In this document: positions 2,401 through 60,669 of the stretch, in pieces
Layout of the letters: each line of letters opens with the position of its first letter
Position numbering within the stretch: the first letter of the stretch is position 1
Notes under the pieces: generated by a model
Databases searched by the model: none
What the model was told of the DNA's origin: nothing
The model's input: only the letters and a program-made list of their open reading frames with translations
Program-made: the position numbers and the translations under genes
NCBI GenBank assembly: GCA_051294905.1
Contig: CM119371.1
Location: 3,164,001 to 3,228,000 of the forward strand
Length of the DNA stretch: 64,000 nucleotides
Source: Botryllus schlosseri
Taxonomy: Eukaryota
Reading direction: 5' to 3'

Positions 2401-5400
2401 ATAATTGAAAAGTCTTGAGTACTTTAATTGCGGAGGATCTATTACCTCTTCATCACTGGACGATTTTGTACAATGCATCATTGCTACTATGTATCATTTT
2501 CTGTTGTTTTTACGGTGGCATATCTGATATGAGACAAGTGCAACGAAAGCAGTGGTGACAAATAGCGATGTCGGCAGAATTCGTCGGATGCGTTGATCTG
2601 GCCATTACGATTCGCAAATTTCTTCATCTTCAAGTCATATAAAATAAGCCGAGTCAATGACTTGGGTCGAGTCATGCGTAATGACTCGAGTACAAGTCGA
2701 GTCAAGCCAAATATTGACTCGAGTCGAGTCGAGTCATTTTCCCATTCCGAGAAAATGACTCGAGTCAAGTCGAGTCATAAAAAAGTCGTGACTCGAGTCT
2801 GACTCGAGTCGAGTCATGACTCGAGTCATTACAACCCTGCATGCTTCGGTATTGATATCTACGCATCAAAAAGAGCTTAAGAATAATTCAAAACTCGTAT
2901 CTGCGCAGTATTGAGGGCCGGGTATTCTACGGAACTGATTGTGCCCGGTGAAAGCTGGTATATACGCTCTATTTGGGGTCAGACATGCATCGGCGTGGAC
3001 ATATGTGCACGAAAAACAGTGCCACCGATGCCTCATACCAAGCTTTAGATTCTCGCAACAATTGTATCCGGACATGGACCGGAGCTGATATGTGAACTTC
3101 AAAATAGCCCTGACATGGCACGCACTCGATATCGTCGCACTGAATGGACTCATACATGCTTCAAACGTGATATCCCCGCGCTATCCACCTTGCAAACAAT
3201 GCGCGATCCGAGATAACTTTTAAATGACATTTATACACGCAGACGCAGTTACTATTACTTCCGATTTTTTTTTCTAGATTGCGATTAAAATTACTTGAAG
3301 ATGCTGCAATCGTCGAAATCGCTTGCAATTATAAATATGATTACCCCATGTCTGCTCCAAATGCATTTTGTCATTTTTCGCCAGCAACAAGATAAAACAT
3401 GACCAAACATCAACAAAGGATTATTTCAACAACTATTCTATTCAGCAAATTCAATTGCAACACATTGTAAAATGAGTAGCTAGATGGAACTCTATTGAAC
3501 GACTCCATCAATCAACTCGGGATAAAAGTTGAAACAATAAATAGATTAGTTAATTCGATATGGCGCGTCACTTCGTGCCTCCAGATCATTGAATCAGCAT
3601 CCCCTACCCACATGATTCGGTTTATCGCTTAGTGTGACATGAAGTATGACGTGCTGAAAATTCCATGCATCAACACTTCTGCGCGTGACTGAAATCGTAG
3701 TTGTTTCCGGAATAATCTGTTAGAGGCAGTCATTTTGCAGCATAGAGATTTGCGCAGCGTTCCTTTATGCGTGTGACAAATGCGCGCGATTCGGCAGCGA
3801 AGTCAAATCGGTTAGTTTCATAAATAAAATTAATTGGAAAGCAAGTAACGGTTACCATTCTTGACGAAATGGTTTTATTAAGCAACATGTTCTATTACCG
3901 CTTACAAACTAGCTTCAATGCTATGTGCATTCCATTGATAGTTCAAGCATCATCATAATATTTCAGTCGACTGATGAAACATCTTGGTGCAAAGCTCTAT
4001 AACAGTAATTCGCAAACTTTTTTTAAACACGCTCATTGATAGTGGTAATTATCGCGCCCCTAGTATCACATTATAAAACTATTATCAAGAGCAACAAGAA
4101 TATTTGCGTTCATAATGCATACTTTGATGGCATTTGAGGTTATGACTGTTGAGAGACCTTCCAAATATGAAATTCAGACTATACCCAGGCCAATTACCAG
4201 TTGGAGCGTGGCCAATGGTTGAAGTGAATCTCGGTGGACGAGAAAAAAATATATCGTTGAATAATTTGTCAAGAATAATCATGTCCTGTCCACGTATCAC
4301 GTAGCATATACATACTTTAGAAATTTTGGTGTCAAATGCCTTTTATTTCCTCACTTGGGCTATAGGCTCAATCAAAAACCATAATTTCTAAAGATCCAAA
4401 ATCATTTCACACATGTCATCAAAAGCATGTCACACATGGCGTATAACATGACCTGATAAGAAAATAATTTATTTCTTCATAACGTTGTCTCCTACTACGC
4501 ACTCTGCACAGATGGCTCACAGACAGACCATAAAAACATTAGCTAACACATACACGCAAGTTACTCCTAATTCGTGGTCATTCCGATCGTTAGGTTCGAT
4601 GTATGGATGGTACGAAGCCATCATGGCATATGAAATCGTACTATAATTCGGATTATTGACATTGTTTAAACATGGAAGTTTCCGCACCCATTAAACTCAC
4701 TCTGAGTTCGAGAAACTCCGCTTTACTCAGGCGGCTTACCGCCAGGGCTTTGGAGCCGGAGCCGGAGCCCGGAGTCGGAACCCCGGAGCCATGCATTTTC
4801 ACCGGAGCTGGAGCCGGAGCCGGAGCCGGAGCTCTACATAAAATTCAGCCAGAGCCGGAGCCGGAGCTGGAGCCCACGATTTGAGGAGTAGCTCAGGCTC
4901 CGACGTTTTTCATAATATGCTAATATATATGCAACAACCACATCTGCTGATTTATCATAATTGAACAGCAGGCCTGAATTTTAATGCTGTGTACAGCAAT
5001 GGCATAGAGTAAAGTGCGTTCTAGTGCAACTATGATGTTATCGACCAGCATTGACAAGTATTCATTATAACGTCACAAGCCGGAACGGCGGCACCTATGT
5101 CTTCGTTGCTACATCGGATGTAACTGTCGGTTGACAAACTCTAGATTACTATAGATAACTAACCTATGTGTAGATCAGTAATCTATATAGACCAGAAATG
5201 GCCACCTTGTTCGGCTAAAGGGGCACATGAAATTGACGAACGAGTGCGCGGTCCACTAGCCGCGCTAAGCGGGTAAAATTTTCAAAGTTTATATATAAAC
5301 TAGGTCAATAATATTATTACTTGAGTATATTGCGGGTCTACTGTATACCGCCCGCTAGGCCCAATTTGCAAGGACACGACTATTCGGCGTCTGGCCACAT

Positions 5401-5819
5401 CGATATCGAAGGTCTCCGATAACATGCGACTATGATTTTGCGCCTACATTTCATCGTCGACGATCTTTATGCGAGCGCAAACGCGAAAAGACTTTCTCCC
5501 GTAATTGCGAATAGACTCAATCGGGTAAATTGGGCGTTTTTTTCATTTTCGATAGGGGGTAGGCTACCAAGCAAGAAATCGTGTGACAATTAAACACGCG
5601 AAGCGTGAAGAAAAATTTCGCCACTATTTTAGTTTATTGTAATGTACGACGATTTACTCAAAATGTGACTGTACCATGGATCTGCCAATGCGTCGGAACT
5701 GATATTTTAGTCATCAACATCCCAAGTGTCGCAGCCATACTTGTAATTTTTGGTTGGCATTGCAAGTTCACAATCTGAGCAATTTATTTTCGATAATAAG
5801 TAGTATTATACACGGTAAC

Positions 5820-6275
5820 GAGGCGCGCCCCAATCAGCGTCGAGTATTTGATCACGTGACATCTGTTAGCCAATCAGAATGCAGAACGAAGTGGGTGTGG
5901 TTCCAATACGAGAGAGGTTTTGGTTGTGCGAGAGATGCCATAGTTCCAGTCCAGTAACGCTGAGATATTTATTACGTCATGTTTGCGTAAGTTGATTACC
6001 TTCAATATGATTGCGTATTGCAGTTGAAGCATGTACAGTATTGATTACGTCATATGCGCAGTTGATTACTTTAGTTATTTCGAGAGCGTCTTTGCTTAGT
6101 TCCAGTAATGCTGAGATATGATTACGTCATGATTGCGTCTAGTTCCAGTCCAATAACACTGAGAAATATTTACGTCATTATGATTGCGTATTACAGTTGA
6201 AGCATGTTCAGTAATGATTACGTCATATGCGTAGTTGATTACTTTAGTAACGCTGAGATATGATTACGTCAATAT
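5820..6275 (+). promoter_or_regulatory. Putative subterminal promoter/enhancer motif cluster, left arm
   Basis: CCAAT boxes (about 5830, 5870, 5903), E-box TCACGTGAC (5852-5860), GT box GGGTGTGG, six TTACGTCA ATF/CRE-like sites (5972, 6045, 6122, 6170, 6218, 6264). Motif evidence only. Confidence 0.5.
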
Positions 6276-9200
6276 TGCGTTGATCGCCTTTGTTATTGCA
6301 GTTGAAGCAAGTGCAAGGCAGTATACAACGTGTAATATTTATTACATGATTATTCGCTGTACGCTGTAGATTGAATATGTGTAATAATATAAAAATTGGC
6401 TAAAATTGTGAATATCTAATCATTGTGAAAATAGCAATTATCTCATGTTGTTGATGAAAATGATCAGCTTACGTTGTTATAAGCTCCTAAGCATGATTTA
6501 AATATGTTTTAAATATTTCATTTTTTAAATAATATTACTTTGCTTCTAACTTTGGAATAATAATTATTGATAATATTTTCATTATTCATTGAAATCATTG
6601 TAGCTTATAACGGTGTACATCTTTTAAATATTATTGTAATGATTTCAATTAATAACAAAAAAATATTATCAATAATTATTATTCCAAGTTAGAACCAAAG
6701 TAATATTTTTTTCAAAAATGGAATATTTAAAAAATATTTAAACCATGCTTTGGAGCTTATAACAGCGTAAGCTGATTATTTTCATCAACTACACAAGATA
6801 ATTGCTAATTTCACAATGATAACATATTCAGTCATAATATAAAAATTGGCTAATATTGTGAATATCGAATCATTGTGAAATTAGCAATTATCTCATGTTG
6901 TTGATGAAAATGATCAGCTTACGTTATTATAAGCACCAAAGCATGATTTAAATATTTTCAAATATTCCACTTTTTAAATATTATTGCTTTGGTTCTAACT
7001 TTGAAACAACAATTATTTATAATATTTTTTCATTATTCATTGAAATCATTGTAGCTTATAACGGGTGAACTGAACATCTTTTTAATAATATTGTTGCTTT
7101 GTGAATATCTTATTGATTTTTAGTTAAATTATCGATTATCTTGTATAGTTGATAAATTAGTTTGTATAAAAGAAGTTCACTGTTATAATCTACATGATTT
7201 CAATGATTATTAAAAATAATTTTAATATTAAATCTAACAAAGTAATAATATAAAAAAAATTGGCGAATATTGTGAATATCTTATCATTGTGAAATTAGCA
7301 ATTATCTCGTGTTGTTGATGAAAATAATCATCTCACGTTGTATTAGGATTTATTTTACAAAACTGTAGTGTAAAGGTCTTTAGTACTTTGGAAAAAGTAG
7401 TTTCTTTCTACTTTACTAAATTTGATGTAAAGTGTTCGACGATTTAAAAAATTTGTATTTATTTTTCAAAATTCCCAGTATAAAAGTTTTTACAAAATCG
7501 ACTTGAGTAAGTACTGTCACTAGGCAAACCCTAGCAGAGTGTACTCTGATAAATGTAGTAGTAGTAATCGATTATCGCGAAATAAATAGATAACATACAA
7601 TATGTGCTTTGCTACGATATCTCATAAATACTTTCATTTAATGTATACAAGTAGGTTATTTATACGTTAAGCCAAGAATAAAAAATTAACGCTGTCTCCA
7701 TAGAAAGATATGTAAATATACTAGAACGGTTACATCTGGACGCCTGCAAGTAAGAACGTAAGCTGGTCATTTTCATCAACAACATGAGATAATTGCTAAT
7801 TTCACAATGATTAGATATTCACAATATAAGCCAATTTCTATATCATTACTGAATATCTTATCATTGTGAGGTTTATTCAACTCTCATTAATCCGGGATTC
7901 TAGAACTACTGAAGTCTCATGGAATTATAAAATACCGTGCTTTGCAAACAATGTAAAAATAATAGAAGCGAAGTTAGCTTGGTTCCCTGGGGACATCTAT
8001 GCCTTTGTCAGGAATGTTCATCCAACGATTAGGTAATTGAATACGCGCGCTTATCAATGCGTCTTGAAAAGCTAGTGGACGGGAAGTGAATACCCTAGAC
8101 AAGTCCGAACCTGTATATATTGCAGCATATTAGAGATAGCTTGCGCAATAGCCCTAAATACAACAAAATGCGGAGAGCTGATATCGCAATAGGTGCGCGG
8201 TATTTGACAATAACAAAACCCAATTGTTCGAACTTAGTGGATCCCATACCGCATTGTTAGCTCTAAATACTTAACCATTGAAAAATCTATTCCCCAATGA
8301 GTTAGACAGCAATGCGTTAGTCGTAGCGATTCAATCGCGTGCTCTATAATAACAAAAACACAAATGACTTGGTGGATATCACTGCTAGCTCTAAATACCA
8401 GTCGCATAGCTGAGGCTAAATGCCGTAAATAACTACTGAGTTGGCCGAGTGGTGACTTACTCGCTCGGAAATCGTCACTTCTTGCACTTTACTAAAAATT
8501 TGCTGCTACTAAAATGGTAAAATGTACTTTTTTCAATGGCCTTGATGAGCAGCGTCAGTTTCATCTATATCCTATCATGCATTTTCGCACAGCAGAATGA
8601 CTTATCGCATCGTAAAATATCAAAAATACATCGAGAATCTGCAGACCCACACTGCGAAATATTTGAGTTTTACGAATTATCCTTCAAAGTGAGCATACAT
8701 ATTGGATATCATCCAAACCCTCTCGATATCGAAATAATTGATTATTTGGAGTACTCAAGTATAGGTTTCGCCTGCTTGGGCTATACTTAATCAAGCGATT
8801 ATCTGTTTAGACTAGAGTTTTCAGTTATCAGACAAATAATACCTTCAATACTTACTTTTTTTAGTCACTCGGAAATCAGCACATCATGTACTTTGGAAGA
8901 AATTTACTGGTAATAGAATGTTGAAATGTACTTTTCCATTGGCCTTGATGAGCGGGCCCAGTTTCATCTATATCCTACCATGCGTTTTCACACTTCAGAA
9001 TGACTTATCACAATGAAAAATAGCACAAATACATCGAGAATTGGCGGAGTCTCACTATACGATAATTGAGTTTTACAAATTATCCTTCGAAGTGAACCTA
9101 CATGTTGGGTATTATCCAAAACCTCGTAGAATGTCGCTCCGAGCGACAAATCCTTTGAATTAAGGTGGAAGCAGCTATTTCCGACTAAGTAAAATGTTAG

Positions 9201-10572
9201 TATTCTAGGTCAATTTCTGCTTAATTCTGAAACTATAGTGGATTTGAAGCAGTATAATATCATAAACACTTGAGAGTATTTGGTACATGTACACTAAAAA
9301 CTTACTTGAGTATACTCTGAAGAAGTCAACATTTACTTGTTTAGCAGCTCGGAAATCATCACTTCTTGTACTTTACTAGAAATTCACTGCTGATGAATGA
9401 GTAATCGACTTTAGTCGATATTTTCGTACTACGAAACTGAAGAATGAATAGACGCGTTTTCGAACTATAGAAGGATATAGTCTCTACAAAATGTTTTTGA
9501 TATCAAAATAACTTTTTTACATGAGTGGTCACGTATCTTAATATTCAAATAACCCAACACAGAACTAGTATTACAAGAATATCATAGTTCTTGTACCAAA
9601 GTTGTGTGTGCACAATATATGTTTAAGGTAAGTCCTACACATTCATGATTTCGTCCGAGTTTGTATTTTAGAAAATAATATACCGACATCGCGACATCTT
9701 TCAAAAACAAAACCATGATCACTGCTTGAGAGACCTATCAATGTCATCACAGTAATCTTGTAACTTCCACAAAAGAGTAGATATGTATTTGACTTTCGTT
9801 CCACAAAGCTAACGCGCAAACAATTTACTTTACTAACGAGAAGTATCGAGTAATCGAATGATTTTCCCTTACATCAAAACAAATAGAATGTAGATTGTAC
9901 AACTATATTTCTAACGTTCCCAACCCTTTGCACACCGCAGTTGTAAATCACACAAGCAACAAGTTTCGAGAAACGAGTTATTGAATAACGTGAAAGTGTT
10001 TTTCCAGTGTCAAGTCGTTATGTTGATTAAAGCATATAATGTAATACCATGAAGTGAGACTTCGAAACCATCGGCAGTTCTCCATGAGCAAATATCGTGT
10101 TCTACAAGTGTTAAGATATAGTATTATGTAGCTAGTAATTGATGCACGTAAACTCGGGATCGAACCAACGTGTGTTAACTTGCGTTATTATGTACCTAGT
10201 AATTGGTGTGAGTAATGCCGCAACTGCTGTTGTTCAATGCATTTACCATGTTCTTAGCAAGCATCTTAATAAGGATAGACAGCCCTAAGCAAATAATGTA
10301 AGTATGTATGTATGAATGATTGGTCTAATGATGCTTAACGACAGAAGCTGGTCTTCTATTCTATATTCCGAAATAATCAAGTTCGTGGTTTACCAACACC
10401 TAGCCTCATAGAAACTTGGTAGAATCACTTATAAATCCTCACGTTCACTTAACTAAATCTAATTTGATACTCGAGTACTGAACCTTAATTTTCCAGCAGT
10501 GTGATAGACGCCGTCAGATGGTACTCAACATCGCATAATTCTGCTCGAATACAAGTAAAAGTACAGATTTCA

Positions 10573-10573
<1 letters not shown>

Positions 10574-10605
<32 letters not shown>

Positions 10606-10621
10606 GGTAAGTAAGTGAGTA
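10574..10621 (+). repeat. (AGTA)n microsatellite in the left arm
   Basis: 8 perfect units then variants; the mirror copy at 15874-15909 has 9 perfect units. Confidence 0.95.
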
Positions 10622-13218
10622 ACTGGTTGTTTGTAGACTATATCTCCACTTCTACCTTTCAGAGATGTTGAGCAGAGAAGTACATGTGTTTCTTCAAAGT
10701 AGTCAAGTAGGTTTTTGGCTACATGCACCAACTACTCAAGTGTTTATGATATAGACCTGTTTCGAATTCAAGACAGTTTCAGTATTAAACAAAAATGGAC
10801 CTTGAATACTAACTTTTTATAATGTGAAATTTTAAATGCATAAACGAAGAAACGTCACTTTTACAATGCTTCGGTATGATTTCTATATTATTCCACTCTC
10901 GTTATTGGACTGCGGTGTGACGGTGAGCTATATCTCGATGCCCGGGCTTCCGAATTAATTTTTTCGATTTATTCTACCCTATGTAGATTTAACATAAGGA
11001 AGGTTATTTCACTCATAAAATTTGAAATACGTATTTGCTCGAGTTAAAGCCATAACGCTTGGAGTGAAATTTTACATGGTTTTCGTTAATATCCAACTTG
11101 GCTAATTCCGAAATGTAAATTGAAAAACTGAAATATCGCATAGTAGGACTTCGCAAATTTTCGATATATTTTTGCTATTTTTTCATGGTGATAAGTCATT
11201 CGGGACGGTGAAATGCATTATAGGAAATAGATGAAACTGGTACAATTCATCAAGACCCCTGAAAAAAGTACATTACATTTCAACATTTTATTAGCAGGTA
11301 ATCGAAATACCACAAACTGTGCTAACCTTCGGAGTTGTTAAGGAAAGAAGTACTCGCACTTCTTCGGAGTAGCCTACCCAAGTAGGTTTTTCGCCTCGAT
11401 GCACCAAATACTCTCAAATCCATATGATATTGGAGTGCTTCAACTTCATGATAGTTATAGTATTAAGCGGAAATATACCTGGAGTACTAACGGTTTACTT
11501 ACTCGGAAATGACTACTTCTATCTTATTTTAAAGGATTCCTCGCTCGACGCGAAATTTTATTAGGTTTTGAATAATATCCAACATGTAAGTTCACTTTGA
11601 AGGCTACTTCGTAAAACTCAAATATTGCACAGTGAGAGTTCGTTAATTCTCGATGTATTTTTTGGTATTTTTATTGCGGTAAGTCATTCTGCAGCGCGAA
11701 AATGCATCGTAGGATATAGATGAAACTGACAACGCTCACCAATACCACTGGACCACAGAAAAAGTACGTTTCAATATTTTAGTAGCAGTAAATTCCTAGT
11801 AAAGTACAAGAAGTGATGATTTCCGAGTGAGTTAAAAAGTAAGTATTGTAGGTATAATTTGGTCGAAAACCGAAAACTCTGAAATAGAAGTAGATGCAGT
11901 GTAAAAAAGTTAATGACTTGATTAAGTATAGCACAAGCAGACCAAACCTATACTTGAGTACTTCAAAATGTACAAGTACTTCGCTATGGACTCCCTCTAC
12001 GTAAAAAGTGACTAGGTTTTAGACTACTTTATCGGTACTTGACAGTTTCAATTTTAGATAAGATTTGGAATAAAAACTAGCTCATTCACCCACTTGGAAA
12101 TCTCTTCTTCAACCTGTACTTGAGCGTAACAAGTGAATCTCATTTAATATTAATTCTACACGTACACTTGACCATATTTTAGGACTTACATAATTACTTT
12201 TCCATATATTTGAAGTCAAGTCTGTCAAATAGCAGTATATGTTACGATGAGCTTATATTCGTTCTGTTTGCTCATCTTGACTAATGATATTCACTCGGTG
12301 AGCTCTCCAGTAATAGCCTTGGGACTTAGAACAGTGTTATATGACATCATAGCGATACAAGGTTACGACAGTTTATAATTAGCTACCTTACGACACCAAA
12401 TTTCGTTAGTTCATCTCCACCTTCAAATACCGTCTTATACAAATATTGTGTATACGCAACAAATACATATATGGCTATGTTGTTGCAATCTGCAAAAAAG
12501 TACCCCCCTGAGTAACCAATTTCTGGTAGGCTATGCATACAAATGAGGACAGTTACATCAACGAGTCGTAACTTGTTGTATTATGTAGCTAGTAATTAGT
12601 GCAAGCAAGTCCGCAACTACTGTTCAAGACCTTTTCCGCGTTTTTTGTCAAGCATCCTCGTAAGGACAGACAGTCCCAATCAGCTAATGTAAGTGTGTAT
12701 GTATGTATGAGGGGTCTTATGACGGTTGACGAATGAAGTTGGTCGTCTATTCTATTCCGAAATAATCAAGTTAGTGGTTTTTAACAGCACCTCACCTCAT
12801 AGAAACTTCAGTAGAATAACTTATAACTCCTCACGTTTACTCAACTAAATCTAATTTGATAATCAAGTACTGAATCTTAATTTTCAAACGAGTTCAAATT
12901 TTACTCTAACTTATGAGATAACATATAATAACTTTTCACGATGCAATGTATTTTACAGCATGAGCCAAGTGATTTCGTAATTAACACAAGATAATTAAAT
13001 GAATTTCTAGAGTATTATAAGACATTCGTGTCATCCTCCTTCGTATATCATAAAAGAATATCTACTGCAGTCGATTTGTAATTATTTGCGCTGTGTTTGA
13101 TTAACTCAATCATGTCACAGGGATTTTTAATAAAAAAAACTCTTTTACAGCATAAACCAAATAATTTCATAATAAACACAAGCTAATTTCATAATAAACA
13201 TAAAAATATTTCCGCGCC

Positions 13219-13260
13219 CTCCTAAACCTAATTCCTCCTAACCCTATAACCTAATCCGGA
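13219..13260. other. Non-palindromic centre of the giant inverted repeat
   Basis: CTCCTAAACCTAATTCCTCCTAACCCTATAACCTAATCCGGA between TTTCCGCGCC and GGCGCGGAAA. Confidence 0.9.
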
Positions 13261-15873
13261 GGCGCGGAAATATTTTTATGTTTATTATGAAATTAGCTTG
13301 TGTTTATTATGAAATTATTTGGTTTATGCTGTAAAAGAGTTTTTTTTATTAAAAATCCCTGTGACATGATTGAGTTAATCAAACACAGCGCAAATAATTA
13401 CAAATCGACTGCAGTAGATATTCTTTTATGATATACGAAGGAGGATGACACGAATGTCTTATAATACTCTAGAAATTCATTTAATTATCTTGTGTTAATT
13501 ACGAAATCACTTGGCTCATGCTGTAAAATACATTGCATCGTGAAAAGTTATTATATGTTATCTCATAAGTTAGAGTAAAATTTGAACTCGTTTGAAAATT
13601 AAGATTCAGTACTTGATTATCAAATTAGATTTAGTTGAGTAAACGTGAGGAGTTATAAGTTATTCTACTGAAGTTTCTATGAGGTGAGGTGCTGTTAAAA
13701 ACCACTAACTTGATTATTTCGGAATAGAATAGACGACCAACTTCATTCGTCAACCGTCATAAGACCCCTCATACATACATACACACTTACATTAGCTGAT
13801 TGGGACTGTCTGTCCTTACGAGGATGCTTGACAAAAAACGCGGAAAAGGTCTTGAACAGTAGTTGCGGACTTGCTTGCACTAATTACTAGCTACATAATA
13901 CAACAAGTTACGACTCGTTGATGTAACTGTCCTCATTTGTATGCATAGCCTACCAGAAATTGGTTACTCAGGGGGGTACTTTTTTGCAGATTGCAACAAC
14001 ATAGCCATATATGTATTTGTTGCGTATACACAATATTTGTATAAGACGGTATTTGAAGGTGGAGATGAACTAACGAAATTTGGTGTCGTAAGGTAGCTAA
14101 TTATAAACTGTCGTAACCTTGTATCGCTATGATGTCATATAACACTGTTCTAAGTCCCAAGGCTATTACTGGAGAGCTCACCGAGTGAATATCATTAGTC
14201 AAGATGAGCAAACAGAACGAATATAAGCTCATCGTAACATATACTGCTATTTGACAGACTTGACTTCAAATATATGGAAAAGTAATTATGTAAGTCCTAA
14301 AATATGGTCAAGTGTACGTGTAGAATTAATATTAAATGAGATTCACTTGTTACGCTCAAGTACAGGTTGAAGAAGAGATTTCCAAGTGGGTGAATGAGCT
14401 AGTTTTTATTCCAAATCTTATCTAAAATTGAAACTGTCAAGTACCGATAAAGTAGTCTAAAACCTAGTAACTTTTTACGTGGAGGGAGTCCATAGCGAAG
14501 TACTTGTACATTTTGAAGTACTCAAGTATAGGTTTGGTCTGCTTGTGCTATACTTAATCAAGTCATTAACTTTTTTACACTGCATCTACTTCTATTTCAG
14601 AGTTTTCGGTTTTCGACCAAATTATACCTACAATACTTACTTTTTAACTCACTCGGAAATCATCACTTCTTGTACTTTACTAGGAATTTACTGCTACTAA
14701 AATATTGAAACGTACTTTTTCTGTGGTCCAGTGGTATTGGTGAGCGTTGTCAGTTTCATCTATATCCTACGATGCATTTTCGCGCTGCAGAATGACTTAC
14801 CGCAATAAAAATACCAAAAAATACATCGAGAATTAACGAACTCTCACTGTGCAATATTTGAGTTTTACGAAGTAGCCTTCAAAGTGAACTTACATGTTGG
14901 ATATTATTCAAAACCTAATAAAATTTCGCGTCGAGCGAGGAATCCTTTAAAATAAGATAGAAGTAGTCATTTCCGAGTAAGTAAACCGTTAGTACTCCAG
15001 GTATATTTCCGCTTAATACTATAACTATCATGAAGTTGAAGCACTCCAATATCATATGGATTTGAGAGTATTTGGTGCATCGAGGCGAAAAACCTACTTG
15101 GGTAGGCTACTCCGAAGAAGTGCGAGTACTTCTTTCCTTAACAACTCCGAAGGTTAGCACAGTTTGTGGTATTTCGATTACCTGCTAATAAAATGTTGAA
15201 ATGTAATGTACTTTTTTCAGGGGTCTTGATGAATTGTACCAGTTTCATCTATTTCCTATAATGCATTTCACCGTCCCGAATGACTTATCACCATGAAAAA
15301 ATAGCAAAAATATATCGAAAATTTGCGAAGTCCTACTATGCGATATTTCAGTTTTTCAATTTACATTTCGGAATTAGCCAAGTTGGATATTAACGAAAAC
15401 CATGTAAAATTTCACTCCAAGCGTTATGGCTTTAACTCGAGCAAATACGTATTTCAAATTTTATGAGTGAAATAACCTTCCTTATGTTAAATCTACATAG
15501 GGTAGAATAAATCGAAAAAATTAATTCGGAAGCCCGGGCATCGAGATATAGCTCACCGTCACACCGCAGTCCAATAACGAGAGTGGAATAATATAGAAAT
15601 CATACCGAAGCATTGTAAAAGTGACGTTTCTTCGTTTATGCATTTAAAATTTCACATTATAAAAAGTTAGTATTCAAGGTCCATTTTTGTTTAATACTGA
15701 AACTGTCTTGAATTCGAAACAGGTCTATATCATAAACACTTGAGTAGTTGGTGCATGTAGCCAAAAACCTACTTGACTACTTTGAAGAAACACATGTACT
15801 TCTCTGCTCAACATCTCTGAAAGGTAGAAGTGGAGATATAGTCTACAAACAACCAGTTACTCACTTACTTACC

Positions 15874-15910
<37 letters not shown>

Positions 15911-18900
15911 TGAAATCTGTACTTTTACTTGTATTCGAGCAGAATTATGCGATGTTGAGTACCATCTGACGGCGTCTATCACACTGCTGGAAAATTAAGG
16001 TTCAGTACTCGAGTATCAAATTAGATTTAGTTAAGTGAACGTGAGGATTTATAAGTGATTCTACCAAGTTTCTATGAGGCTAGGTGTTGGTAAACCACGA
16101 ACTTGATTATTTCGGAATATAGAATAGAAGACCAGCTTCTGTCGTTAAGCATCATTAGACCAATCATTCATACATACATACTTACATTATTTGCTTAGGG
16201 CTGTCTATCCTTATTAAGATGCTTGCTAAGAACATGGTAAATGCATTGAACAACAGCAGTTGCGGCATTACTCACACCAATTACTAGGTACATAATAACG
16301 CAAGTTAACACACGTTGGTTCGATCCCGAGTTTACGTGCATCAATTACTAGCTACATAATACTATATCTTAACACTTGTAGAACACGATATTTGCTCATG
16401 GAGAACTGCCGATGGTTTCGAAGTCTCACTTCATGGTATTACATTATATGCTTTAATCAACATGACGACTTGACACTGGAAAAACACTTTCACGTTATTC
16501 AATAACTCGTTTCTCGAAACTTGTTGCTTGTGTGATTTACAACTGCGGTGTGCAAAGGGTTGGGAACGTTAGAAATATAGTTGTACAATCTACATTCTAT
16601 TTGTTTTGATGTAAGGGAAAATCATTCGATTACTCGATACTTCTCGTTAGTAAAGTAAATTGTTTGCGCGTTAGCTTTGTGGAACGAAAGTCAAATACAT
16701 ATCTACTCTTTTGTGGAAGTTACAAGATTACTGTGATGACATTGATAGGTCTCTCAAGCAGTGATCATGGTTTTGTTTTTGAAAGATGTCGCGATGTCGG
16801 TATATTATTTTCTAAAATACAAACTCGGACGAAATCATGAATGTGTAGGACTTACCTTAAACATATATTGTGCACACACAACTTTGGTACAAGAACTATG
16901 ATATTCTTGTAATACTAGTTCTGTGTTGGGTTATTTGAATATTAAGATACGTGACCACTCATGTAAAAAAGTTATTTTGATATCAAAAACATTTTGTAGA
17001 GACTATATCCTTCTATAGTTCGAAAACGCGTCTATTCATTCTTCAGTTTCGTAGTACGAAAATATCGACTAAAGTCGATTACTCATTCATCAGCAGTGAA
17101 TTTCTAGTAAAGTACAAGAAGTGATGATTTCCGAGCTGCTAAACAAGTAAATGTTGACTTCTTCAGAGTATACTCAAGTAAGTTTTTAGTGTACATGTAC
17201 CAAATACTCTCAAGTGTTTATGATATTATACTGCTTCAAATCCACTATAGTTTCAGAATTAAGCAGAAATTGACCTAGAATACTAACATTTTACTTAGTC
17301 GGAAATAGCTGCTTCCACCTTAATTCAAAGGATTTGTCGCTCGGAGCGACATTCTACGAGGTTTTGGATAATACCCAACATGTAGGTTCACTTCGAAGGA
17401 TAATTTGTAAAACTCAATTATCGTATAGTGAGACTCCGCCAATTCTCGATGTATTTGTGCTATTTTTCATTGTGATAAGTCATTCTGAAGTGTGAAAACG
17501 CATGGTAGGATATAGATGAAACTGGGCCCGCTCATCAAGGCCAATGGAAAAGTACATTTCAACATTCTATTACCAGTAAATTTCTTCCAAAGTACATGAT
17601 GTGCTGATTTCCGAGTGACTAAAAAAAGTAAGTATTGAAGGTAATATTTGTCTGATAACTGAAAACTCTAGTCTAAACAGATAATCGCTTGATTAAGTAT
17701 AGCCCAAGCAGGCGAAACCTATACTTGAGTACTCCAAATAATCAATTATTTCGATATCGAGAGGGTTTGGATGATATCCAATATGTATGCTCACTTTGAA
17801 GGATAATTCGTAAAACTCAAATATTTCGCAGTGTGGGTCTGCAGATTCTCGATGTATTTTTGATATTTTACGATGCGATAAGTCATTCTGCTGTGCGAAA
17901 ATGCATGATAGGATATAGATGAAACTGACGCTGCTCATCAAGGCCATTGAAAAAAGTACATTTTACCATTTTAGTAGCAGCAAATTTTTAGTAAAGTGCA
18001 AGAAGTGACGATTTCCGAGCGAGTAAGTCACCACTCGGCCAACTCAGTAGTTATTTACGGCATTTAGCCTCAGCTATGCGACTGGTATTTAGAGCTAGCA
18101 GTGATATCCACCAAGTCATTTGTGTTTTTGTTATTATAGAGCACGTGATTGAATCGCTACGACTAACGCATTGCTGTCTAACTCATTGGGGAATAGATTT
18201 TTCAATGGTTAAGTATTTAGAGCTAACAATGCGGTATGGGATCCACTAAGTTCGAACAATTGGGTTTTGTTATTGTCAAATACCGCGCACCTATTGCGAT
18301 ATCAGCTCTCCGCATTTTGTTGTATTTAGGGCTATTGCGCAAGCTATCTCTAATATGCTGCAATATATACAGGTTCGGACTTGTCTAGGGTATTCACTTC
18401 CCGTCCACTAGCTTTTCAAGACGCATTGATAAGCGCGCGTATTCAATTACCTAATCGTTGGATGAACATTCCTGACAAAGGCATAGATGTCCCCAGGGAA
18501 CCAAGCTAACTTCGCTTCTATTATTTTTACATTGTTTGCAAAGCACGGTATTTTATAATTCCATGAGACTTCAGTAGTTCTAGAATCCCGGATTAATGAG
18601 AGTTGAATAAACCTCACAATGATAAGATATTCAGTAATAATATAGAAATTGGCTTATATTGTGAATATCTAATCATTGTGAAATTAGCAATTATCTCATG
18701 TTGTTGATGAAAATGACCAGCTTACGTTCTTACTTGCAGGCGTCCAGATGTAACCGTTCTAGTATATTTAAATATCTTTCTATGGAGACAGCGTTAATTT
18801 TTTATTCTTGGCTTAACGTATAAATAACCTACTTGTATACATTAGATGAAAGTATTTATGAGATATCGTAGCAAAGCACATATTGTATGTTATCTATTTA

Positions 18901-20208
18901 TTTCGCGATAATCGATTACTACTACTACATTTATCAGAGTACACTCTGCTAGGGTTTGCCTAGTGACAGTACTTACTCAAGTCGATTTTGTAAAAACTTT
19001 TATACTGGGAATTTTGAAAAATAAATACAAATTTTTTAAATCGTCGAACACTTTACATCAAATTTAGTAAAGTAGAAAGAAACTACTTTTTCCAAAGTAC
19101 TAAAGACCTTTACACTACAGTTTTGTAAAATAAATCCTAATACAACGTAAGATGATTATTTTCATCAACAACACGAGATAATTGCTAATTTCACAATGAT
19201 AAGATATTCACAATATTCGCCAATTTTTTTTTATATTATTACTTTGTTAGATTTAATATTAAAATTATTTTTAATAATCATTGAAATCATGTAGATTATA
19301 ACAGTGAACTTCTTTTATACAAACTAATTTATCAACTATACAAGATAATCGATAATTTAACTAAAAATCAATAAGATATTCACAAAGCAACAATATTATT
19401 AAAAAGATGTTCAGTTCACCCGTTATAAGCTACAATGATTTCAATGAATAATGAAAAAATATTATAAATAATTGTTGTTTCAAAGTTAGAACCAAAGCAA
19501 TAATATTTAAAAAGTGGAATATTTGAAAATATTTAAATCATGCTTTGGTGCTTATAATAACGTAAGCTGATCATTTTCATCAACAACATGAGATAATTGC
19601 TAATTTCACAATGATTCGATATTCACAATATTAGCCAATTTTTATATTATGACTGAATATGTTATCATTGTGAAATTAGCAATTATCTTGTGTAGTTGAT
19701 GAAAATAATCAGCTTACGCTGTTATAAGCTCCAAAGCATGGTTTAAATATTTTTTAAATATTCCATTTTTGAAAAAAATATTACTTTGGTTCTAACTTGG
19801 AATAATAATTATTGATAATATTTTTTTGTTATTAATTGAAATCATTACAATAATATTTAAAAGATGTACACCGTTATAAGCTACAATGATTTCAATGAAT
19901 AATGAAAATATTATCAATAATTATTATTCCAAAGTTAGAAGCAAAGTAATATTATTTAAAAAATGAAATATTTAAAACATATTTAAATCATGCTTAGGAG
20001 CTTATAACAACGTAAGCTGATCATTTTCATCAACAACATGAGATAATTGCTATTTTCACAATGATTAGATATTCACAATTTTAGCCAATTTTTATATTAT
20101 TACACATATTCAATCTACAGCGTACAGCGAATAATCATGTAATAAATATTACACGTTGTATACTGCCTTGCACTTGCTTCAACTGCAATAACAAAGGCGA
20201 TCAACGCA

Positions 20209-20664
20209 ATATTGACGTAATCATATCTCAGCGTTACTAAAGTAATCAACTACGCATATGACGTAATCATTACTGAACATGCTTCAACTGTAATACGCAA
20301 TCATAATGACGTAAATATTTCTCAGTGTTATTGGACTGGAACTAGACGCAATCATGACGTAATCATATCTCAGCATTACTGGAACTAAGCAAAGACGCTC
20401 TCGAAATAACTAAAGTAATCAACTGCGCATATGACGTAATCAATACTGTACATGCTTCAACTGCAATACGCAATCATATTGAAGGTAATCAACTTACGCA
20501 AACATGACGTAATAAATATCTCAGCGTTACTGGACTGGAACTATGGCATCTCTCGCACAACCAAAACCTCTCTCGTATTGGAACCACACCCACTTCGTTC
20601 TGCATTCTGATTGGCTAACAGATGTCACGTGATCAAATACTCGACGCTGATTGGGGCGCGCCTC
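20209..20664 (-). promoter_or_regulatory. Mirror copy of the subterminal motif cluster, right arm
   Basis: Reverse complement of 5820-6275. Confidence 0.5.
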
Positions 20665-21029
20665 GTTACCGTGTATAATACTACTATAATATATTAGGAA
20701 ATTACCTCGCGGGCCACGTAAAACCCTCTCGCGGGCCACATTTTACCCGCGGGTTGGCCAGCCCTGATATAGACAGGCCCATTCGATAATTTCAGAGCCG
20801 GAGCCGGAGCAGTGGTAATAATGCGGCTCCGGAGCTGGAGCCGGAGCTAATCTATGATAGAAGAAAGCTCCGGAGCTGGAGCTGGAGCAGTTTAAATTTA
20901 CGGCTGCTCCAAAGCCCTGCTTACCGCCCCTTCAGACGCTTTCACGACCCCGAAAGGTACGCGTCCCACAAGAATCACTACTGTATGGGAAGTAAGCTGA
21001 CATTGCCAAATTAACTGTGAATTGGTTTA

Positions 21030-22400
21030 CACGAGTCGTAAACTCAAATATATCACATTTCAGAGACCTTTGCCGCTAAGTAGTTTTATCAAACTTATCC
21101 CACATACACCGCAAGCAGGTTTATGGTACGATCCAAGTGGCAACGAAGCTGGGACACGCTGCTTTGTCAAAATAAATTTTCCCGCAGGCTTTTGAAATGA
21201 AGAATGATATGAAATAATGATTAGGGAAGTTACCAGTGGAAGATTCCAATGAAGAAAAAACTGCTAAGAAACCCCACAAGTATATGTTATCTTACCGATA
21301 TGAAATTATATTGCACGATACATATTACCGTCCCATCGCTTTAGTTTGCCAACAAACTGTTTTATGCCTTCGTGAAGCTATGCCAGTGCCAGCAGCATAA
21401 GTTATCTCATCTTCCATGAATTCTACTAATTGCGCAGTTCCTGTACCAGGCTGCATATTCGTAACATATATTGCCACTTCAACTGCACGAAAATCGTACA
21501 TTGCGTTACAGCGCAATGAGAACATCCTGCTATTGCAACCTTTGATTTAATATCGAACTCTAAAATGAAGCTCCTGTTATGCATCGAATTCATATTATGC
21601 CTGTAAGGAGAGTAATGGATCATTTTATACAATTACAACGTTTTCTGTACCATAGTTTTGTTGTGGCTGCGCAATCTCTAAATTGTTTACAACATTGCCT
21701 TTTCCAAGTGCTTTCGGCGCGTGAGGCGAAATCAGGGATGATTAGTTCTCAAGAGTTTCGGCTGTTACTCATCACTATGGACGAGCTATCTGTCCGCCTG
21801 AAAATTATCATCAATGTAGTGTACAGTTCATCGTTACAAGTATCAGCATAATATTTCAGTTGGTTGGTGACAGATATTGGTGAAATAAGCTCTATACGGA
21901 TTACGTCGACATTGCCATGTCATTGAGTGTTTATTTTTTATACGAGTCGTGAAATTACATATATCATAGTTTTACCAAATTTATGTCGTACACGGTAAGC
22001 AGGTTTATAGCACATTATCTGAGTGACAAATTAGCTGGGATAGGCTACTTCGTCATAATAAATTCTACTCAGGCCTTTCATGGAAGTGTGATATCAAATA
22101 ATAACGATGAAAGTAGCCAGTGGAAGATTCCATTGAGAAAACAACTGCTTCAAAGCCCTATAATGCTATGTTATCTTGTCAATATGTAATTATATTCCAT
22201 AATAAACATTAGCAACACTTCGCTTTAGCTGTTCGCAAACTGTTTTATGTCTTTGTGACGCTGTGTTCATAATAGCAGTATAGGTTATCCAATCCAGCAT
22301 AAACAATACTAACTTAACAGTGCCTGTACCAGACTGCATACTCGTCACATATGCTGTAACTTACTGCACGAAGCTCGGGATTGCGTTACATCGCTGCGAA
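21030..22400. repeat. Diverged direct duplication (about 21030-21520 vs 21940-22400)
   Basis: Colinear shared blocks such as ACGAGTCGT.AAA, AGCAGGTTTAT, CCAGTGGAAGATTCCA, ATGTTATCTT, CCTGTACCAG.CTGCATA. Confidence 0.75.
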
Positions 22401-25640: not shown

Positions 25641-27039
25641 ATCGGTTGATTTGACCGGGAAAAATAGCCGCAGTATCACAGAAAATTGATATACTTTAAA
25701 AAAATGAATCAAGTACTAATTCAAATGCTTCGAGTCGAGTAGTGAGAGATATTATCAGCTTGTTGCTTCTATAGAATTGATTAACCGATTGGCACTGGCA
25801 GTTTTATCCAAAAATTTTGCTGGACTTTTCAAAACTGAAAAACACGACACCAACGGCATGCGACATGGGATACATCGTTGGACTCAGAATGTCAACGTCT
25901 AACCCATTACACCACGAAACGAGACGAGAGCAGGTCAACCACTCGTGTATATAATCGAGAGAAGACTGGAAAATTTTTCTATAAAAACGGACAAGTTTTG
26001 GTTACTTCCTTATAGAGTCCACTACGAATACCTAGCACTAATTTGTACCTGCTGTACACTGCAACACATATAACATCTTTCGAACAAGGTACGAGTGACC
26101 GATTTTGCTCAACTTATGCAATCGATACTATAGAGCGTTTGACCCTAAACCGCAGTCTGATTCATGCGTCAGAAGGTATTTAATATGAAGTAAAGTCGGC
26201 ATTATATTCTTTCTGGTCATGAAATGTACATATTTGCACTTCCAACATTTTCCATACTGTTATGATAAACATACTCGTGAACATAACGGGGATATTGTCA
26301 GTGGCCATCAAATCTCACAAAACATCATGTTTCAATCATCAGTGACATAATCTCAAAATCTATTCGGGTGGCCTACAAGTTCTAACTACCATTAAGAGTG
26401 TATTGTCTCACAAACTTTTTCAGGCCTCACTGAGTATGATATTATTGGCTGGCACGCTAATTGTACAAGCTACCAGTCTAGTTAGTCACAGGTTAAGTAA
26501 AAACTGGTTTTTTGACTAGTTGAAAAGTGTGTAGTTTTAATTCAGTAGTTCATTAAATAGTTGCCTACATCTAGAAACACGCGTCATCATTTGGCATAAA
26601 TCTTGATGTAAACATGGTGATGTAAACCTCAGAGACCACATCACTACAGAGACTGGCGAAGCCGGGTTGTTTGGGGTTGAAAGCCTTCCCATTATACGTA
26701 GAAACCTTATTTTAGAAGTGACAATTCTGCATCCAATATTACTCATCTGGTTTACGATTCAGTAATTTGTATTATCAGTGCTGCCAATTATCGACAATCG
26801 ACAGTGCATAGCGGCATGCGATCTGGTTGTTAGTTGCAGATCTTTTATGGTCGAAGTTCACGTTACCGATCTCGAACACCCAGCAGTTTGTAAAAGTCTG
26901 TTGGTATATATTATTTTAGGAAGTGGGTAGTGTTTTATCCTCATTGGCCGAATGATTAGGATCAAGTGTTGTAAAAAAAATGAGATCTGAAAATGAAACT
27001 GAAAGCGAGTAAAGTTTATGTCAAAGTCACAAAATGTCC

Positions 27040-27296
27040 GCTTTACTTGAAGCTTTACCTGCTTTCCAACGTAAATCAACTATCGGCTTGGGCATATTGA
27101 TCGTTGCAAAGATCCCAGAACTGTTATTAAAACTCTTCGAAGCTTCTAAAGCGTTCTCATGCTTGGTGAAGTTTATGAATGCGTATCCGAGCGGTCTTCC
27201 GACTCCATCTTTGCTGACAGTCTTCAGATCTCGCATCTCTCGAGAATCCGTGATAACTACGCCGCGTCGATGTTTGAATTGGGACAGGAGAAGCTC
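27040..27296 (-). pseudogene. RBM28: RBM28/NOP4-like RRM4 exon remnant (exon C)
   Basis: ELLLSQF...REMRDLK...GRPLGYAFINFTKHENALEA...NN..IF....PIV resembles RBM28 RRM4 (RVMRDLK..SLGYAFAEF.EHEHAL.AL...NNNP..F....RPIVEF); acceptor AG changed to AT; frameshift after PIV. Confidence 0.85.
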
Positions 27297-27947
27297 ATGA
27301 AAACATTAAAAAATCAGTTTATTGAAGTAGGCCTACTCTTCATAGAGTAAATGCTACAAACAAAATATAGAACAGCGATTCTCTACCTTATCAGCCTGTG
27401 TACTGGTAAATTTCCCAAAATTAAGGTCAACACAGAATGTAATGACGACAACAGCATGCAATTGAAAACCAAGAAACTGAATTTCAATTAAATGAGAAAT
27501 TTGATACTGTCCGTTTGATATCACACCTGTTATACCAGGTCTCATTGAAGATTCTGGAAGAAGGGATAAAACCAACAACTCACTTTTGACCGTTTGGTCT
27601 ATTTTGAAAGAAATGCGACGAAATGCTTACCAGATGTACAATACTGGTAAACATTGCAAAATGGTATTTACGAATTTCGTCAAATTTTGGAAAGTCTTTA
27701 TGACTCATGACTGGTCTCACACGAGTTGTAGGCTTGAAAAAGGTTAAGAACCACTGCTCTAGTCATTTTTGTATACTGACTTGACGATAACACTTCATAA
27801 AACACACACATATTGCAGCACCAAAGTAGTGTCCAGTAATTCTCAGTTTACCGATAGACTTGTGTCATAGCTATGGATCAAAATTGTTTACATGACCGAT
27901 CGAATACTCTCTACTGATGCTACTTTTTCCAGGTTTTTATGCATGAA

Positions 27948-59476: not shown

Positions 59477-60669
59477 CAGGGGTGGGCAAACTACGGCCCG
59501 CGGGCCGCATGCGGCCCGCAACACCGTTCTGTGCGGCCCGCGAGAGTCTCAAGAAACTTATGAAAAATATTGATAAAATGCGTACTAAAAATCGAATTAA
59601 TGCAGGGACTTGACTTGATTAAAGTTTTTCTTAGTGCATTTCACCATGATAATTCTAAGGCAGTGGTTCTCAAACTGGAGGGAGGGGGCGTGAAAGCATC
59701 TGAAGGGGGCGCGAAGCTGAGCTCAACTGAGGATTTTATTCGCGCTCCGCGCGATTCACGTCCAATTCATAATCATAGCTCTGTATTTAGTCTGAATTTC
59801 ATGTTTAAAAATCAATCATCCACAGTCGTAACCTTCCATGCCATCAAACTATCCGTTAGGTTTGCTGGCATCCTGGTTGCGTTTTGTGATATGACGCTAA
59901 GGGTGGCGCGAAATCTTTCACCATCATAAGGGGGGGGGAGGGGGAGCGTGTCTTAAGAAGTTTGAGAACCACTCTGTTCTAAGGTATACTTCCTATATTA
60001 TTTTTCATGTTTAATTTCTTGCGCGACAGCCCGATCTCAAGGCCCAAGCATTTTAAAAGATTTGAACTGCTAAACATCACAGAAATCCTAAACGAGATTG
60101 ATATAATTCGTTTCACGAGTATGTGATTTCAGATTGACCACTCCAGTTCTAATTATTTCAGAGGTGTGCTTATAAAAAACGATTCGCGTGTGTATAAGAT
60201 AGATTCCTTCTCTGTGTGCGTGGAATTGGGGTATTTATATTTTATCTAGGCTACATATAGTAGAAGCGTGTTTGAAGCTAACGTGGCTCTGATGCTGTCA
60301 GCATTGTGTGTCCTGGAACTGAACCAAAAGTGGAATTAGTAAATCTATGAACAGATCGCTGCTCACAGATTTCAATTTCAATCATATTCTAAGAATCGGG
60401 ACAACCGACTTTCATCTCTATAGTTTTGACAAATTGGTCATTGAGATCGACCAGCCTATGAAATCTCGCTACTATGTTTATGGCGCGTGTACGATATCAT
60501 CAAAGCAATGGCTTGTTTTAAATATGCACTTATATTATCTCCATGTCCTCACTATATAATCAAATGCCATTATGCGTTTTGGTTATAATCCCAATTTTAT
60601 AAAGTGCGGCCCGCGAATGGATTCAGATGTTGAATGCGGCCCGCAAGCTCAAAAGTTTGCCCACCCCTG
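59477..60669. mobile_element. hAT-Charlie-like MITE
   Basis: TIRs CAGGGGTGGGCAAACT / AGTTTGCCCACCCCTG; exact 8-bp TSD TTTTAACG; GCGGCCCGC repeats. Confidence 0.92.
59661..59976. mobile_element. Charlie-like MITE nested in 59477-60669
   Basis: CAGTGGTTCTCAAACT / AGTTTGAGAACCACTCTG; exact 8-bp TSD TTCTAAGG. Confidence 0.88.

Follow-up and report, generated by a model that had tools for sequence, protein, structure and literature searches.

A gene-less 14.9-kb palindrome with Maverick/Polinton-type ends inserted into a hAT-type element of Botryllus schlosseri

The DNA analysed here (the window) is a stretch of 64,000 nucleotides from the genome of Botryllus schlosseri (assembly GCA_051294905.1, contig CM119371.1, positions 3,164,001 to 3,228,000; all coordinates below are those of the window). 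It contains, at 5799-20685, a palindrome of 14,887 bp which carries the terminal motif of Maverick/Polinton elements and is flanked by a perfect 6-bp target-site duplication (TSD), and in which we find no gene. We interpret the palindrome as a genuine single insertion of a protein-free element of the Maverick/Polinton group, most likely inserted in trans by the integrase of an autonomous Maverick. Its two halves would have been produced by fold-back synthesis, and we favour a fold-back that took place before integration. To this reading as a whole we assign a probability of slightly more than one half.

Results

Structure of the palindrome

Both an inverted-repeat search and a direct alignment of the halves resolve the element into a single inverted repeat, with a left arm of 7,420 bp (5799-13218, plus strand), a centre of 42 bp (13219-13260, plus strand) and a right arm of 7,425 bp (13261-20685, minus strand) that is the reverse complement of the left one. 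An earlier interpretation of this DNA, made without database searches (the sequence-only reading), had described one inverted repeat with exactly these arm and spacer lengths. The 42 bp of the centre are all the unique sequence that remains in the whole element. The arms lie inside one BLAST alignment and are 99.811% identical. Globally aligned, they differ by nine substitutions (at 7334, 7638, 7712, 7844, 8337, 8839, 10019, 11998 and 12010), by an indel of 1 bp (7252/19232) and by a 4-bp step in an AAGT microsatellite (10573/15907). The substitution divergence of 0.12% means that the palindrome has persisted for some time without suffering a central deletion. Since neither arm carries an insertion or large deletion that would distinguish it from the other, nothing has entered either of them since they were made.

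The left arm terminates at the centre with the heptamer CCGCGCC (13212-13218, plus strand), whose partner GGCGCGG is located at 13261-13267; the two arms stop at one and the same nucleotide. The heptamer consists of G and C residues only and adjoins 53 nt with a G+C content of 13%. We consider CCGCGCC/GGCGCGG a candidate for the microhomology that primed a fold-back. The sequence between the two heptamers is asymmetric, with a 1-nt bulge, a stem extension of 3 bp (TCC/GGA) and a loop of 35 nt. It contains four CCTAA motifs and one CCCTA, all in one orientation, while CCTAA occurs 36 times on the plus strand of the entire 64-kb window. A short GC-rich inverted repeat enclosing an asymmetric loop is the trace expected when a 3′ end folds over and primes synthesis on the strand to which it belongs, and this anatomy supports fold-back synthesis as a more plausible source of the symmetry than the ligation of two independently broken molecules.

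The CCTAA-rich loop resembles a degenerate telomere repeat. Two adjacent elements, considered as a source of the structure, can be discarded: the arms do not carry their outer ends in inverted form at the inner side (CCGCGCC), and neither arm is thus an element by itself.

Ends and insertion site

The element starts with (AGT)2 at 5799-5804 and ends with (ACT)2 at 20680-20685, as read on the plus strand. Only one AGTAGT...ACTACT pair with matching 6-bp flanks exists in the window, and it coincides exactly with the edges of the palindrome; 200 shuffled versions gave a mean of 0.07 such pairs and a maximum of one. In a survey of vertebrate Mavericks (PMC8097293), 5′-(AGT)2//(ACT)2-3′ with perfect 6-bp duplications is the commonest type of end, 5′-(AG)3//(CT)3-3′ being given as an alternative conserved motif. 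AGTAGT appears 713 times in a supplementary table of that survey, where AGTAGT/ACTACT is listed row by row with the duplications. Intact vertebrate Mavericks are reported there to measure 12,723-24,620 bp (mean 16,862 bp, standard deviation 1,678 bp), a range that includes the 14,887 bp of the palindrome. Both the Maverick/Polinton-type ends and the length close to that of autonomous elements, as proposed by the sequence-only reading, are thus borne out by the published values for vertebrates.

The palindrome therefore combines a 6-bp TSD, (AGT)2//(ACT)2 ends and terminal inverted repeats, which are the cis features of Mavericks/Polintons. It lacks the protein-primed polymerase and the integrase which a Polinton encodes according to the definition given in PMC5499653. 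As judged from these cis features, its assignment to the elements mobilised by Mavericks/Polintons appears well supported. The absence of any gene means that it is not an autonomous Polinton and at most a non-autonomous derivative. Non-autonomous Polinton families have already been catalogued, for example Polinton-1N1_DR (named in PMC9341505).

To examine the surroundings of the insertion and the distribution of the arm sequence we used contigs from four public runs aligned to 5100-13400. Three of the runs (X1, X5 and X9) come from the same species and one (X6) from a related species. Summed contig depth is not equivalent to copy number, the contigs are unable to show the absence of a sequence, and those that align are shorter than would be needed to span the centre junction or the full palindrome.

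The palindrome is inserted in a non-autonomous hAT-type element of ~681 bp. The left part of this host element (5193-5798, plus strand) starts with CAGAAATGGCCACC and ends in the ATAATA target, and its right part (20692-20766, plus strand) ends on the minus strand with CAGGGCTGGCCAACC. It possesses the CAG...CTG inverted ends and the 8-bp duplication by which hAT elements are recognized: the 8-mer ATATAGAC is found at 5185-5192 and, identically, at 20767-20774, directly outside the inverted ends of the host. An earlier description of the host as Charlie-like was correct at the level of the hAT superfamily. The two copies of the 6-bp TSD, ATAATA, occupy 5793-5798 and 20686-20691. Past position 5798, 60 contigs of X1 and one contig of X6 read TAATAGGAAATTACC without a second ATAATA, and TAATAGGAAATTACC corresponds, with one mismatch, to the host sequence from 20692 onward. 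Since uninterrupted copies of the host carry ATAATA only once, the 6-bp duplication is a true TSD generated by the insertion of the palindrome. The collinear host halves, together with ATAATA on both sides, agree with the proposal of a single insertion into an otherwise intact element.

The host itself belongs to an extremely abundant family of hAT miniature elements: in X1, X5 and X9 no other bins come near its summed contig depth. Very many contigs from each of the four runs, including that of the related species, align to its left part (5193-5798).

Coding content

The longest stop-to-stop open reading frame (ORF) that overlaps an arm measures 89 amino acids. None of the 83 ORFs of at least 35 amino acids in the left arm reached the Pfam cut-off; seven of them gave weak and unrelated matches with E values of 0.014-0.24. 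Rfam and tRNA scans of positions 5000-21500 were empty. These results agree with the description of the palindrome as non-coding, without an ORF for a protein-primed polymerase (pPolB), an integrase, an ATPase, a protease or a capsid protein.

Arm anatomy and related sequences

Three domains can be distinguished in the arms, given here for the left arm on the plus strand. The terminal domain (5799-6380; 39% G+C, with mirrored features at 20213-20662) contains, within 80 bp of the end, GGCGCGCC (5822), two copies of CCAATCAG (5830 and 5870) and CACGTG (5853). It also comprises sub-terminal iterated repeats, namely two 81-nt units and four units of 28-35 nt, and the six copies of TTACGTCA at 5972-6264 are all the plus-strand occurrences of this motif in the window. 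It is followed by an AT-rich domain (6381-7870; 25% G+C) built from units of ~414-450 bp, some direct and some inverted, which are close to palindromic in their own right. The inner arm (7871-13211) is a non-coding mosaic of older, diverged repeats with 75-80% identity. It includes an inverted match of ~77% between 8457-9400 and 11056-11990, a direct match of 80% between 10166-10493 and 12559-12885, the (AAGT)n microsatellite at 10573-10622 and, at 13152-13212, an AT-rich tandem repeat with a 22-bp unit. No other copies of the arm sequence were found within the window.

As a side observation, the tip domain (5822-5877 and 5972-6264) resembles a cluster of factor-binding sites, and its motifs could be candidate sites for replication or transcription factors.

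The aligned contigs cover 30 of 30 bins of 5100-13400 in X1, X9 and X6 and 29 of 30 in X5. Position 5890, which is only 90 bp away from the tip, is covered by 40 distinct contigs of X1, 12 of X5 and three of X9, and position 9973 by 50 contigs of X1. The arm-like contigs of the three same-species runs are at least 90% identical to the arm and represent many distinct variants. In the related species, pieces of 202-561 nt with 6-15 differences are distributed across 8148-11827. Arm-like sequence is multi-copy in the species and present in many variants, and so the palindrome is not the isolated oddity as which it had first been presented: sequences like that of the arm recur in the species even 90 bp from the tip, and pieces of them recur in a related species. 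Joints in the aligned contigs skip 1,172, 1,349 and 2,500 bp, which indicates that the relatives differ in module content. Nearly all contigs differ from the palindrome copy at many sites, and this copy is consequently not the master copy of the family. All aligned contigs read the T of the right arm at position 7334, and hence the C of the left arm looks like a later change.

Discussion

Proposed origin of the palindrome

We propose the following sequence of events. The starting point would be a linear, non-autonomous family member with Maverick ends that was being copied. A growing 3′ end with GGCGCGG would have paired with the CCGCGCC situated 42 nt upstream in the same strand; with the strand just made as its template, the polymerase would then have continued as far as the outer end, giving rise to a linear molecule with two identical Maverick ends. 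We favour an extrachromosomal linear copy as the site of this fold-back, which would have occurred during strand-displacement replication and before integration. The retroviral-type integrase of a helper would subsequently have inserted the fold-back molecule in trans, producing the 6-bp duplication, after which the arms would have drifted apart by 0.12%. Once formed, such a molecule might even have enjoyed an advantage in strand displacement, as each displaced strand of a palindrome would immediately fold into a hairpin whose end is double-stranded. The sequence-only reading had already advanced a snap-back origin. The fold-back part of this proposal is sustained by the centre, whose anatomy is as expected of fold-back priming; its timing before integration does not receive the same backing, since repair after integration gives the same structure.

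A more specific version of this origin would see in the palindrome an integrated snap-back defective Maverick genome, and thus a fossil of an extrachromosomal, strand-displacing and protein-primed cycle. With its ready-made double-stranded origin, the hairpin would have conferred an advantage in replication, and the near-genome length would have aided the handling, perhaps the packaging, of the molecule. We put this forward tentatively and would sooner bet against it than for it. Packaging may be the cause of the length of the palindrome, which is a single data point.

Several observations weigh against the reading that we prefer. Arms of 7.4 kb are five times as long as the longest terminal repeat published for an intact Maverick (1,447 bp). 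That the element descends from the genome of a Maverick is indicated by its ends and by no other feature: neither the ORF listing nor Pfam revealed a remnant of a Maverick gene in the arms. Searches for exact matches to the 22-nt tip and to the 26-nt motif iterated in the sub-terminal region gave none in viral and none in metagenome contigs. No contig of the related species lies over 5888-5890 among those aligned, which cannot show absence. Moreover, the arms have the appearance of a patchwork of repeats of host type. The summed depth of some of these is very high (bins 9532-9808 and 11471-12024), and the multi-copy signal may therefore stem partly from unrelated repeats that lie nested within the arm. 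Finally, the centre junction has been seen at this locus only, in data that are unable to test other loci.

Alternative explanations

The main rival is a palindrome formed in place. According to this scenario an ordinary, asymmetric and non-autonomous Maverick-type element was inserted, generated the TSD and later suffered an internal double-strand break. Repair would have begun with a fold-back of the left broken end at CCGCGCC/GGCGCGG, from where the left arm was copied towards the outside; the new strand would then have annealed within the right terminal repeat, so that a mirror copy of the left half took the place of the right half. Such a repair predicts the same centre anatomy, and the ends and the TSD are equally compatible with both routes; the sequence on its own does not separate repair in place from a fold-back before integration. 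The internal-deletion joints in the contigs (1,349, 2,500 and 1,172 bp) speak for a heterogeneous family rather than for identical palindromes, as repair at a single locus would have it. Likewise, the summed depth in X1 is 600 in the last bin, which contains the centre, and 3,620 in its neighbour, as would fit a centre that is rarer than the arms; however, contig depth does not measure copy number, and an AT-rich low-complexity tract falls into the last bin as well. On the other hand, repair in place requires a resection of several kilobases on the right side that stopped exactly within the terminal repeat, and of a former right half no trace is left. We consider this course of events unlikely, and nonetheless a serious competitor of the fold-back before integration.

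Much less probable is a fold-back transposon unrelated to Mavericks which happens to generate a 6-bp duplication, such as a Ginger2/TDD element or a member of an undescribed family. Long modular terminal repeats built of sub-repeats are a hallmark of fold-back elements, the arms contain no Maverick genes, and a high copy number would be unusual for Mavericks, for which the vertebrate survey gives a mean of 22 copies per genome (PMC8097293). Ginger2 elements also make 6-bp AT-rich duplications, but their termini are TGTNR and their target is RTATAY (PMC2836005), as opposed to AGTAG and ATAATA here, the latter fitting RTATAY at three of six positions. The exact (AGT)2//(ACT)2 motif is specific and has been published for Mavericks, in vertebrates, by the same survey (PMC8097293).

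Slightly more improbable still is a head-to-head joining without self-priming, in which a truncated linear copy was replicated and its sister ends fused, or two copies became ligated to each other, and the junction took up telomere-like filler. The four CCTAA motifs in 42 bp, as compared with 36 in 64 kb, could represent such a filler or short repeats added by telomerase to a broken end. However, they all point in one direction, whereas a symmetric centre would be expected if two capped ends had fused. Furthermore, arms that end at the same nucleotide of a heptamer made of G and C only are not expected from independent breaks and would result from a sister fusion by chance only.

Last and least credible, the mirror structure could be the work of the assembler or of chimeric fold-back reads, long palindromes being a known product of fold-back chimeric long reads and the aligned contigs being too short to span the whole structure independently, but a fold-back chimera duplicates one flank while the flanks here are the collinear halves of one hAT host with a perfect 6-bp TSD, and the arms are resolved as two distinct copies nine substitutions and two indels apart.

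Relation to known elements

In its end motif, perfect 6-bp TSD, inverted repeats and total length the palindrome is like the Mavericks of vertebrates (Barreat and Katzourakis 2021, PMC8097293; Kapitonov and Jurka 2006 as cited there). It differs from them in being devoid of all eight conserved genes and in that its inverted repeats fill the whole element (7,420 bp, compared with 46-1,447 bp for the terminal repeats of intact vertebrate Mavericks in that survey). Maverick terminal repeats are thought to serve the jumping-back step in protein-primed replication (PMC8097293). As described there, the survey began from matches to the integrase and the polymerase, and a derivative without genes would consequently have gone undetected in it. 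With non-autonomous Polinton families such as Polinton-1N1_DR (PMC9341505) the palindrome shares the lack of proteins and a presumed mobilisation in trans by autonomous Polintons.

A snap-back defective genome is a highly symmetric palindrome that arises when a strand is copied in reverse-complementary fashion (PMC13506859). The palindrome described here resembles the snap-back defective genomes of viruses in its symmetry, in the presence of the same origin at both ends and in its need for helper functions. Unlike these free replicating molecules, it is an integrated chromosomal copy with a TSD and contains no recognizable piece of a parental virus. Among protein-primed systems, precedents are provided by adenoviruses, whose defective molecules carry long inverted repeats, and by the yeast killer plasmid pGKL1, of which palindromic 'hairpin' derivatives exist. 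The fold-back elements FB of Drosophila and TU of sea urchins, with duplications of 9 and 8 bp, respectively, have long modular arms and little or no unique middle. The palindrome is like FB and TU in having long arms made of sub-repeats, and differs from them in the length of the TSD and in its end sequences; FB and TU are moved by other transposases. Among Polintons, those of Lepidoptera have terminal repeats of ~2 kb that contain the capsid and protease genes (preprint 10.1101/2025.02.07.637071). As in the palindrome, their terminal repeats have grown far past the usual few hundred base pairs, but the Lepidoptera elements keep a unique coding middle where the palindrome keeps only 42 unique bp.

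A literature search, which did not extend to Repbase entries, yielded no description of a wholly palindromic derivative of a Maverick/Polinton; among the terminal repeats with a stated length that it brought up, those of ~2 kb in Lepidoptera were the longest. What is new in the present data are the many arm-like variants in the same and a related species, the mosaic organization of the arms, and the combination of a heptamer of G and C only with a CCTAA-rich 35-nt loop at the centre.

To our knowledge, the linear protein-primed replication of Mavericks/Polintons and their integrase cycle have been deduced from gene content and not observed directly. In this context, a full-length palindrome without genes, yet with perfect Maverick ends and TSD, indicates that these cis signals are enough for insertion. 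Were the centre junction shared by further copies, this would be direct sequence evidence for an extrachromosomal replicating stage that makes snap-back by-products as in adenoviruses and linear plasmids. The palindrome also marks a class of derivatives that is invisible to gene-based surveys.

In animal genomes, long palindromes of near-perfect symmetry are seldom stable. A palindrome that has lasted long enough to acquire nine substitutions between its arms should be useful for studies of palindrome stability and possibly of silencing by hairpin RNA. Indeed, if the snap-back interpretation were true, a chromosomal inverted repeat of 7.4 kb could yield a hairpin RNA that silences its own family. 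Silencing by the hairpin RNA of an inverted repeat has a precedent in Mu killer of maize.

Other features of the window

None of the 11 ORFs of at least 110 amino acids in the window has a Pfam match. Among 71 further ORFs of at least 75 amino acids (86 listed, minus the 11 scanned earlier and four mirror copies in the right arm) two have one, to a hAT dimerisation domain and, as a borderline case, to an RRM. The former is a relic of the C-terminal dimerisation region of a hAT transposase (PF05699, E value 1.6e-09) at 2102-2359 on the minus strand, ~3 kb to the left of the palindrome, and comes from a decayed autonomous hAT element. The borderline RRM_1 match (27030-27305, minus strand) scores 20.8 bits, the cut-off being 20.7. 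It may represent an exon of a gene for an RNA-binding protein, and nothing else in the window points to a host gene.

Another hAT-type miniature element is probably delimited by CAGGGGTGGGCAAAC, which is present in two inverted copies ~1.2 kb apart, at 59477-59491 (plus strand) and 60655-60669 (minus strand). An imperfect (GGAGCC)n microsatellite lies at 4740-4875 and has short look-alikes at 20795-20888, just to the right of the hAT host. Just right of the palindrome there is also a direct repeat of ~300 bp, the two copies of which (21081-21382 and 21967-22265) are 73% identical.

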